This document shows positions 9,651-10,319 of a stretch of 10,561 bases of DNA, piece by piece (the first letter of the stretch is position 1; every line of letters starts with the position of its first letter). Source of the DNA: a virus (lineage: Duplodnaviria > Heunggongvirae > Uroviricota > Caudoviricetes); IMG/VR virus record IMGVR_UViG_2663763339_000007, one strand, 5' to 3'. Position numbers and translations under genes: made by a program. The notes under the pieces were generated by a model. That model was not told the DNA's origin. It saw nothing but the letters and a program-made list of their open reading frames with translations, and ran no database searches.

Positions 9651-10319
9651 CTATTTTTTCCCTGAAGCGGAAAACATTACTACAGTACCTTGAACCTTGG
9701 TTTTAACATTCTCGAAATGCTCTGAGAGTATATGTGTTAAGCCTTCTTCGGAATCTTTTGTGTTTGAAAAGATGCCTTTCTGATTGTAAATGCGCATCAG
9801 TTTTTGACCGAAGCTATTGTGCACAATTCCATCGCCAAGAATTGTGGCTCCGTATAGAGTTCCATCGTCAGTTAAGGCCTGCGCCGCATTGCGTATTACA
9901 CAGCTTTTTGTAGATATATTTCCAGGCAGGCAGTGAAGAAGGTAAAACATGGAAATGGAATCAAATTGACCATGTAACGCCGCGGGATAAGGTTCAAAAA
10001 CATCATGGTTAATTTTATGTTTAATTTTTGATTCCCCAGCCCTTGTAGATGCCGCGTTCAGGCTAGCTTCGTTCAAATCCATTAAAGATATCAGACTACT
10101 CTCAGGTACGTGAGTAAGGTAAAACCCAGTTCCAACACCAATATCCAGATGGTTGTTACCTAAATGTTCCAGAAAGTGTGGAAGAAGGTGTTCCTTTGTA
10201 GGACATCCCCATGCAAGCCGATTTGATACTCCCAAAACCCACCAGTCATAAAGCTTTAGGGTAAGTGGTGTGTAAATTTTAGCCCCATCATCTGTGTTTT
10301 TTTTCATTAATTTCACCAT
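9651..10319 (-). CDS. Class I SAM-dependent methyltransferase-like protein (222 aa; the alternative start at Met5, nt 10307, has a better SD)
   Basis: Rossmann-fold methyltransferase motifs in order: motif I HLDIGVGTGFYL (hh-D/E-h-G-x-G-x-G), an acidic residue ending beta-2 (LISLMDLNEASL), motif II FDSISMFYLLHCLP, motif III LTDDGTLYG. No DPPY/NPPW or Pro-Cys DNA methyltransferase catalytic motif was seen. Followed by its own terminator. The substrate cannot be assigned. Confidence 0.72.
   Translation of the reverse strand: MVKLMKKNTDDGAKIYTPLTLKLYDWWVLGVSNRLAWGCPTKEHLLPHFLEHLGNNHLDIGVGTGFYLTHVPESSLISLMDLNEASLNAASTRAGESKIKHKINHDVFEPYPAALHGQFDSISMFYLLHCLPGNISTKSCVIRNAAQALTDDGTLYGATILGDGIVHNSFGQKLMRIYNQKGIFSNTKDSEEGLTHILSEHFENVKTKVQGTVVMFSASGKK

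Follow-up and report, generated by a model that had tools for sequence, protein, structure and literature searches.

The ybcY gene, its transcription signals and its distribution

The window analyzed here, i.e., the whole stretch of 10,561 nucleotides of the IMG/VR virus record IMGVR_UViG_2663763339_000007 (Caudoviricetes), carries near its 3′ end a gene oriented opposite to the phage tail genes. Since it occupies the same slot of prophage DLP12 as b0562 of Escherichia coli K-12, this gene is an intact allele of E. coli ybcY, annotated in K-12 as a ‘putative SAM-dependent methyltransferase’ (SAM, S-adenosylmethionine). The slot is formed by tfa, ybcY, tfaX and appY–ompT. In K-12 MG1655, where the order is tfaD, ybcY (b0562, a pseudogene), tfaX and appY inside the ‘cryptic prophage DLP12’, tfaD directly abuts ybcY, whereas the genes pin, ydfK and ynaM lie between tfa and ybcY in the window (Table 1). 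As an object, the gene is not new: it is named, annotated in RefSeq and contained in PHROG 2132. The 901 bases spanning it are found with 100% identity in many E. coli chromosomes, where it is labeled ‘class I SAM-dependent methyltransferase’. PHROG 2132 (E-value 5e-156; residues 5–222 span the whole 218-position profile) is the phage-database name of the same ybcY family; it is annotated with ‘unknown function’ and adds no functional annotation. As a feature, ybcY is ordinary, and its possible importance lies in its function.

The initial annotation, made from the sequence alone, had treated the open reading frame (ORF) as a genuine gene, and this holds far beyond chance: a word-indexed search returned 2286 homologues, and the ratio of nonsynonymous to synonymous substitution rates (dN/dS) is 0.22 in comparison with Citrobacter and approximately 0.11 in comparison with Enterobacter, indicating clear purifying selection. 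The gene has a GC content of 40.5% and a GC content at third codon positions (GC3) of 36%, while gene J of the tail region has 55 and 65%, respectively. The product of about 24 kDa has an isoelectric point of approximately 7 and a net charge of about zero, and is predicted to be soluble.

The true start is probably the second ATG (M5, positions 10307–10305), giving a protein of 218 instead of 222 amino acids, because the homologues all begin at M5, as does the PHROG 2132 profile, because the lesion of the K-12 pseudogene removes exactly this ATG, and because a Shine-Dalgarno-like GGTGA is found 5 nt upstream. The conserved start codon precedes a run of eight A, and it is here that the 2-bp loss in K-12 maps.

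Transcription of ybcY could start from a sigma-70 promoter read from the sequence, the −10 hexamer of which abuts the annotated ATG (10319), so that the transcript would begin within the first four codons. Identical hexamers make up the constitutive RpoD promoter that a genomic SELEX (systematic evolution of ligands by exponential enrichment) study of K-12, performed in vitro, reported for ybcY; this study also lists an H-NS mark in the spacer between ybcY and tfaX (PMC3946193). A weak alternative promoter-like site with a TG extension was obtained in a consensus scan; the number of promoter-like sites in the region is not above shuffle expectation. Downstream of the gene, the 71 nt following the stop codon fold into a GC-rich hairpin (9608–9645; −22.3 kcal/mol, z-score −4.27, with none of 200 shuffled sequences as stable) followed by a U run. 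A simple terminator scan did not list this hairpin, which became visible on direct folding of the stretch. Hence, the terminator assumed in the initial annotation is present, together with a promoter region belonging to the gene, and monocistronic transcription of ybcY is plausible from these signals.

Table 1. Positions of ybcY, its putative signals and the neighboring genes in the window.
Feature	Position	Strand	Basis and remarks
ybcY coding sequence	9651–10319	−	222-codon ATG ORF; Pfam; RefSeq WP_000239872.1
Shine-Dalgarno-like GGTGA	10313–10317	−	5 nt upstream of the M5 ATG; putative, from sequence reading
Putative sigma-70 promoter	10320–10348	−	TTGATT (10348–10343), 17-nt spacer, TATAAC (10325–10320); sequence reading
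Alternative promoter-like site	10348–10375	−	TTAACC, 16-nt spacer, CATAAT, TG extension; consensus scan, weak
Intrinsic-terminator-like hairpin	9605–9645	−	CCGCAGCACG...CGUGUCUGCGG, then U run; begins 6 nt past the UAG stop
tfaX-like tail-fibre-assembly fragment, divergent from ybcY	10376–10561	+	ORF; ST2350 and K-12 annotation
ynaM/ynfT (37 aa)	9172–9285	−	Annotation, PHROGs
ydfK	8870–9103	−	Annotation, PHROGs
pin-type serine recombinase	7961–8551	−	Pfam (Resolvase + HTH_7), annotation, PHROGs

A search of 5426 complete E. coli genomes detected ybcY in 3832 of them, in 3799 at a coverage of at least 80% (approximately 70%), which places it among the most widespread prophage cargo genes of this species. 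The copies are 95–100% identical, with up to four per genome. Of 50,697 phage records, 16 contain ybcY, and the full gene is present at ≥99% identity in 14 isolated lambda-like phages, including Turner, Kati, 2G7b, ev243 and the PhiR series. Phage 2G7b carries it between the tail-fibre genes and the integrase, beside tfa fragments, an alpha/beta hydrolase gene and ompT; this stretch presumably corresponds to the b region of lambda. The statement that such a gene is foreign to the lambda tail region is correct insofar as ybcY is absent from phage lambda itself, but the gene is not an oddity, being common and annotated cargo of lambda-like prophages. Taken together, the putative promoter and terminator, the orientation opposite to the tail genes, the GC3 of 36 versus 65% and the variable presence are best read as those of a phage ‘moron’, i.e., a self-transcribed, AT-rich and horizontally acquired cargo gene.

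The K-12 copy differs from the window at 11 positions over 771 aligned bases. Its disabling change is a 2-bp deletion of ‘GA’ at the probable start codon (ATGAAAAAAAAC to ATAAAAAAAC; in the wider context, ...TTAATGAAAAAAAAC... to ...TTAATAAAAAAAC...), followed by an early stop. Since the K-12 copy is dead, ybcY has escaped K-12-based functional genomics, and screens in this strain are silent on it. The literature on ybcY consists of gene lists, the promoter map and a negative K-12 deletion result, and no functional study was found. The deletion gave no phenotype in a published screen, a result which is uninformative as the deleted allele was already inactive.

Fold and family of YbcY

Profile and structure searches agree in assigning YbcY a predicted class I (Rossmann-like) SAM-dependent methyltransferase fold. 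The Pfam family Methyltransf_12 was matched with an E-value of 1.2e-9 (39.2 bits, cut-off 30), and Methyltransf_23, Methyltransf_25 and Methyltransf_11 likewise scored above their curated cut-offs. An AlphaFold2 model built on 26 homologues (mean predicted local distance difference test score 89.9, predicted template modeling score 0.86) displays the class I sheet of seven strands, capped N-terminally by two helices and having a helical insertion behind strand 5 and an antiparallel C-terminal beta-hairpin at residues 202–221, and Foldseek recovered methyltransferases of this fold with it. The initial annotation had proposed motifs I, post-I, II and III in canonical order; sequence, predicted secondary structure and alignments concur on this point. 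Motif I (H57-LDIGVGTG-65) follows strand 1, and none of the three alignments shows a substitution at its residues G61, G63 and G65. In class I methyltransferases, the acidic residue ending strand 2 binds the ribose hydroxyls of SAM; in YbcY, D81 closes the predicted strand 76–81 and is conserved without exception from E. coli through to the fungi. H105-D106 follows strand 3, the motif II region comprises strand 4 (F119-DSISMF) and the subsequent LLHCLPG, and motif III corresponds to strand 5 (residues 149–160).

The fold does not lead directly to a reaction. Searching the Protein Data Bank by sequence returned remote matches alone, the best being JHAMT (juvenile-hormone-acid methyltransferase; E-value 1.2e-5 with the family profile) besides UbiG (E-value approximately 1e-3), and no solved structure of a family member was found in these searches. 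JHAMT is also the second-ranked Foldseek match, at 21% identity. The generic small-molecule methyltransferases of class I with solved structures, namely MM_2633 (3dtn), BelI, PsmD, DhpI, RebM, Coq5, UbiG, JHAMT and PmtA, are 11–21% identical to YbcY, and none is outstanding. As these enzymes cover O-, N- and C-methylation, the fold alone leaves the chemistry unfixed. Nothing came near the cut-off in NCBIfam: the RquA model reached 17 bits (cut-off 175), and no UbiG or UbiE model was among the matches.

More specific hints came from the closest characterized proteins. YbcY is 36% identical to AurB of Calcarisporium arbuscula (Swiss-Prot AURB_CALAK; E-value 3e-47) and 41% identical to the methyltransferase encoded at the citreoviridin (CtvB) locus of Aspergillus terreus (E-value 4e-52). 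The homology extends over the full length of proteins of about the same size (218–230 amino acids) and includes shared invariant residues all along the SAM site and in the two cap regions; by these sequence relationships, YbcY belongs to the AurB/CtvB family. In A. terreus, the gene order is F1-ATPase beta, a polyketide synthase of the highly reducing type (HR-PKS; 2509 aa), the methyltransferase (229 aa), a 199-aa protein and an FAD monooxygenase (473 aa). This order matches the published citreoviridin cluster, which consists of the HR-PKS gene ctvA, ctvB for a methyltransferase of 228 aa, ctvC for a flavin-dependent monooxygenase of 473 aa, and ctvD (PMC7077241); in addition, a published ctvB primer matches within the methyltransferase gene with three mismatches. 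A family gene of Fusarium is located near HR-PKS and cytochrome P450 genes. AurB (aurovertin) and CtvB (citreoviridin), as well as AstB and DovB, which are 38–50% identical to AurB/CtvB according to the literature, O-methylate the alpha-pyrone ring hydroxyl of polyene pyrones (PMC12312803; PMC7077241). The fungal enzymes reside in HR-PKS clusters and act on the product of their own cluster, whereas YbcY is stand-alone phage cargo, and no polyketide synthase (PKS) cluster is found near ybcY in the window. Furthermore, YbcY falls into a separate bacterial clade, and a few residues fixed throughout the bacterial members, N83 among them, are replaced in CtvB and AurB.

This tight family reaches far beyond the fungal secondary-metabolite clusters from which its characterized members are known, being spread over Proteobacteria, a few other bacteria and fungi. 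Among the matches of the word-indexed search listed with a named source, Enterobacterales, Aeromonas and Shewanella are represented, and the full-length ones measure approximately 218–230 aa. A profile search of 1.84 billion representatives yielded 421 clusters with an E-value below 1e-30, nearly all of approximately 220 aa and aligned end-to-end, which extend the family to Francisellaceae, Flavobacteria, Pseudomonas, Janthinobacterium, Rhodanobacter, Lysobacter and many ascomycete fungi. In an alignment of 22 bacterial and fungal sequences including AurB, 31 columns hold a single residue throughout, from E. coli to fungi, among them Y16, Y24-D25, V28, W37, C39, H57, D81, H129-C130, K138, N179, F184, N186 and D189. 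Thus, the invariant residues reach beyond the SAM motifs into the N-terminal cap and the insert following strand 5. No second informative Pfam domain was detected on long family members, and a single fungal fusion to RCC1 is probably an artifact of the gene model.

Comparing the family across kingdoms (proteins P0133, P0285, P0318 and P0394, bacterial P0348 and P0296, loci L020 and L021), we found E. coli YbcY to be 36–47% identical to fungal members. A member from the lichen fungus Endocarpon is approximately 50–53% identical to those of Pseudomonas and Janthinobacterium. This unusually high similarity raises the possibility of a transfer of the family between bacteria and fungi.

Some E. coli strains encode a second family member (P0076; locus L025, positions 6001–6654), which is 60% identical to YbcY and located in a non-phage island after ybtE/fyuA-like genes, a gene for a second TonB-dependent receptor and a DUF4198 gene. 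A suspected paralogy of YbcY with YmfD of prophage e14 was rejected (BLASTP E-value 14). Like YbcY, YmfD is an uncharacterized putative methyltransferase of approximately 221 aa borne by an E. coli prophage, but there is no detectable sequence similarity between them, and the literature on YmfD is irrelevant to ybcY.

A putative small-molecule O-methyltransferase and alternative explanations

Based on the family assignment, we propose that intact ybcY is an H-NS-marked moron encoding a small-molecule O-methyltransferase, an explanation which, taken as a whole, we favor with some reservation. In lambda-like E. coli phages, the gene sits where the tail-fibre region ends toward the integrase, outside the late tail operon, and would be transcribed from the sigma-70 promoter in the H-NS-marked ybcY/tfaX spacer to the hairpin terminator. 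With SAM as methyl donor, its product would methylate a small hydrophobic compound, either a metabolite or a xenobiotic, at an acidic enol, hydroxyl or carboxyl-like oxygen. The methylation would alter the charge, reactivity or toxicity of the compound for the lysogen, and the phage would carry ybcY as a lysogenic-conversion gene helping its host, plausibly by way of a toxic or signaling compound. The individual parts of this proposal differ in strength. That YbcY is a methyltransferase of small molecules is very probable. O-methylation of an enolic or acidic oxygen is proposed by analogy, since the group methylated by AurB and CtvB is the acidic 4-hydroxyl of a vinylogous acid, namely a polyketide alpha-pyrone; here we are nearly evenly divided and lean slightly toward doubt. 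The homology to AurB/CtvB is a modest new lead, from which the first concrete hypothesis for the chemistry of YbcY follows, one that is cheap to test.

Several observations weigh against this proposal. The characterized members of the family are fungal only, and at 36–41% identity, the type of reaction may be conserved on another substrate, or even at another acceptor atom. In a quick neighbor-joining distance tree (22 sequences, 100 bootstraps), bacteria and ascomycete fungi split into separate clades (80/100 bootstraps), with the pyrone enzymes grouped as a subclade of the fungal one (72/100 bootstraps). Alpha-pyrones are not known as products of E. coli. The genomic neighborhood does not point to a substrate either: ten bacterial contexts outside the E. 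coli prophage, from eight other genera (Salmonella, Enterobacter, Yersinia, Aeromonas, Pseudomonas, Rhodanobacter, Janthinobacterium, Citrobacter) and from the second E. coli paralogue, showed no shared neighbor, operon partner, biosynthetic cluster or PKS, and the gene stands alone. The best structural matches mix N- and C-methyltransferases with O-methyltransferases at similar scores. Finally, expression in a lysogen rests on the in vitro SELEX promoter map of K-12, a strain in which ybcY is a pseudogene.

Phages often carry orphan DNA methyltransferases, and since ybcY is phage-borne, it might be asked whether it shields phage or host DNA in an anti-restriction or epigenetic role. Dam-like N6-adenine, N4-cytosine and C5-cytosine DNA methyltransferases likewise depend on SAM, are built on a class I core and occur as phage-borne genes. 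In contrast to those of phages and restriction-modification systems, YbcY has neither motif IV nor the PC cysteine motif, a target-recognition domain or a nuclease partner. A regular-expression search of the protein detected no (D/N/S)PP(Y/F/W) motif, not even a PP dipeptide, and no PC(Q/K) motif as in C5 DNA methyltransferases; a lone ‘ENV’ at residue 203, in the C-terminal hairpin, is regarded as fortuitous. The AlphaFold2 model contains no target-recognition domain or other extra domain, YbcY matches no DNA-methylase family in Pfam, and among the PADLOC defence profiles just a 16-bit match to mad2 was obtained (E-value 7.7e-4), which is at chance level. The adjacent genes, namely ynaM/ynfT, ydfK, the serine recombinase and the tfa fragment, are not nuclease-like. 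The initial view that the gene lacks DPPY/NPPW- or PC-type motifs as well as a nuclease-like neighbor, and is probably not a classical restriction-modification component, is therefore upheld, and a role in DNA methylation is next to negligible. That annotation had further left open whether the target is a small molecule, RNA or protein; the evidence points to the first of these. A methyltransferase directed at rRNA or tRNA, or at a protein of the phage or host (the tail fibre, for instance), would fit the position of ybcY next to the tail-fibre genes. However, the protein of 218 aa has a neutral isoelectric point, a net charge of about zero and no extra RNA-binding domain, the gene runs against the tail genes and is transcribed apart from them, the family stands alone in non-phage contexts and occurs in fungal PKS clusters, and the nearest characterized relatives act on small molecules, all of which renders an RNA or protein target improbable.

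Among enzymes acting on small molecules, a carboxyl O-methyltransferase similar to Tam or JHAMT, which modifies an organic or fatty acid of endogenous or dietary origin in detoxification or housekeeping, would agree with JHAMT being the best sequence match in the Protein Data Bank and second in Foldseek, and the stand-alone spread over very different bacteria and fungi fits a ubiquitous substrate. Nevertheless, the 21% identity to JHAMT compares with 36–41% to AurB and the CtvB-locus protein, and no NCBIfam carboxyl methyltransferase model passes its cut-off, so that we regard this explanation as unlikely. It is a variant rather than the opposite of the proposed enol O-methylation and chemically near to it, as a 4-hydroxy-2-pyrone is a vinylogous acid. 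A phospholipid N-methyltransferase of the PmtA type, converting phosphatidylethanolamine to its methylated form or to phosphatidylcholine and thereby remodeling the membrane of the lysogen, would be of similar size and stand-alone organization, and a weak match to Legionella PmtA was indeed obtained in NCBIfam (NF045882). Yet, this match reached 16.2 bits with a cut-off of 390, the structural similarity is generic, the characterized family members are polyketide O-methyltransferases and the fungal members are found in PKS clusters; membrane remodeling is accordingly given even less credence than an RNA or protein target. Lastly, ybcY might be a functionless prophage remnant in decay, as suggested by the 2-bp deletion at the likely start codon in K-12, by the H-NS mark at the promoter region and by the missing phenotype of the K-12 deletion, uninformative as the latter is for a dead allele. 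Against this stand the intact, 95–100% identical copies in approximately 70% of complete genomes, the carriage by viable phages, a dN/dS of 0.11–0.22 and the catalytic core, which is invariant from E. coli to fungi, so that we consider a decaying remnant very improbable.

Returning to the proposed small-molecule O-methyltransferase, a more far-reaching version would see YbcY as a phage-delivered resistance or detoxification enzyme, which O-methylates acidic-enol natural products of competing microbes or of the diet; candidates are 4-hydroxy-2-pyrones, tetronic or tetramic acids, 4-hydroxycoumarins and hydroxyquinolones. The family would then be an ancient stand-alone group of ‘enol O-methyltransferases’, which was recruited into fungal polyketide toxin clusters or exchanged between bacteria and fungi, the members of both kingdoms still being 36–53% identical. 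This version is speculative and we consider it a long shot, but if true, detoxification by YbcY would give lysogens a fitness benefit.

Gene neighborhood and further observations

The tfaX-like fragment is an essentially constant partner of ybcY: the gene, its terminator and the start of tfaX are kept together in 3796 genomes, compared with 3799 genomes containing the gene itself. The block of pin, ydfK and ynaM (7961–9285) is variable cargo context and not a functional partner. A conserved synteny with the 77–88-aa ORF and the recombinase, as suggested initially, was thus confirmed in part, as the junction of ynaM and ybcY is kept in 2780 genomes, but K-12 and phage 2G7b lack the block. The 3′ end of tfa recurs as a direct repeat of 92 bp (7696–7787 and 10469–10560, plus strand; 78 of 92 positions identical), which brackets the block together with ybcY. 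This bracketing repeat, along with the absence of pin, ydfK and ynaM beside ybcY in K-12 and 2G7b, suggests that cargo is gained or lost by recombination between the tfa copies. In ST2350, the genes are arranged in the order J, lom, tail fibre, macro-domain gene, tfa, recombinase, ydfK, ynaM/ynfT, ybcY and tfa fragment, followed by appY, ompT, envY, ybcH and nfrA, which places the locus at the DLP12 position.

A Pin/Gin-type recombinase sits after tfa. No inverted alternative tail-fibre segment is evident in the window, given that the tfaX fragment is in direct orientation, although no search aimed at crossover sites was made. The 88-aa ORF at 8870–9136 on the minus strand corresponds to ydfK, for which RefSeq uses a later start, yielding a 77-aa ‘cold shock protein YdfK’; the protein shows a faint, sub-threshold similarity to the YcgZ regulator family (NCBIfam E-value 0.0076). 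The candidate small RNA IS009 of Rfam (RF02111) was matched at 7631–7829 on the plus strand with 218.5 bits (gathering score 117), wholly within the 3′ part of the tfa coding sequence.

In phage 2G7b (NC_049954, positions 7208–9832), the stretch from ybcY/tfaX to the integrase contains the alpha/beta hydrolase gene and ompT, which encodes an outer-membrane protease. As ompT is thus found within an isolated phage, this arrangement suggests that the appY–ompT stretch beside DLP12 is itself phage cargo.

Between the long tail-fibre gene and tfa, a 300-aa gene (6377–7279, plus strand) was found, the ATG of which overlaps the tail-fibre stop codon. It encodes an N-terminal Macro domain (ADP-ribose-binding or hydrolase; Pfam E-value 5.9e-19) and a His-rich C-terminus with the tail-fibre-like motifs GAHSHG and GAHTHT. 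The gene belongs to PHROG 2613 (unknown function), has no PADLOC match and is interrupted by an IS3 element in ST2350. A Macro-domain gene is unusual in a tail-fibre module, and its product could be an injected or virion-associated enzyme directed against ADP-ribosylation.

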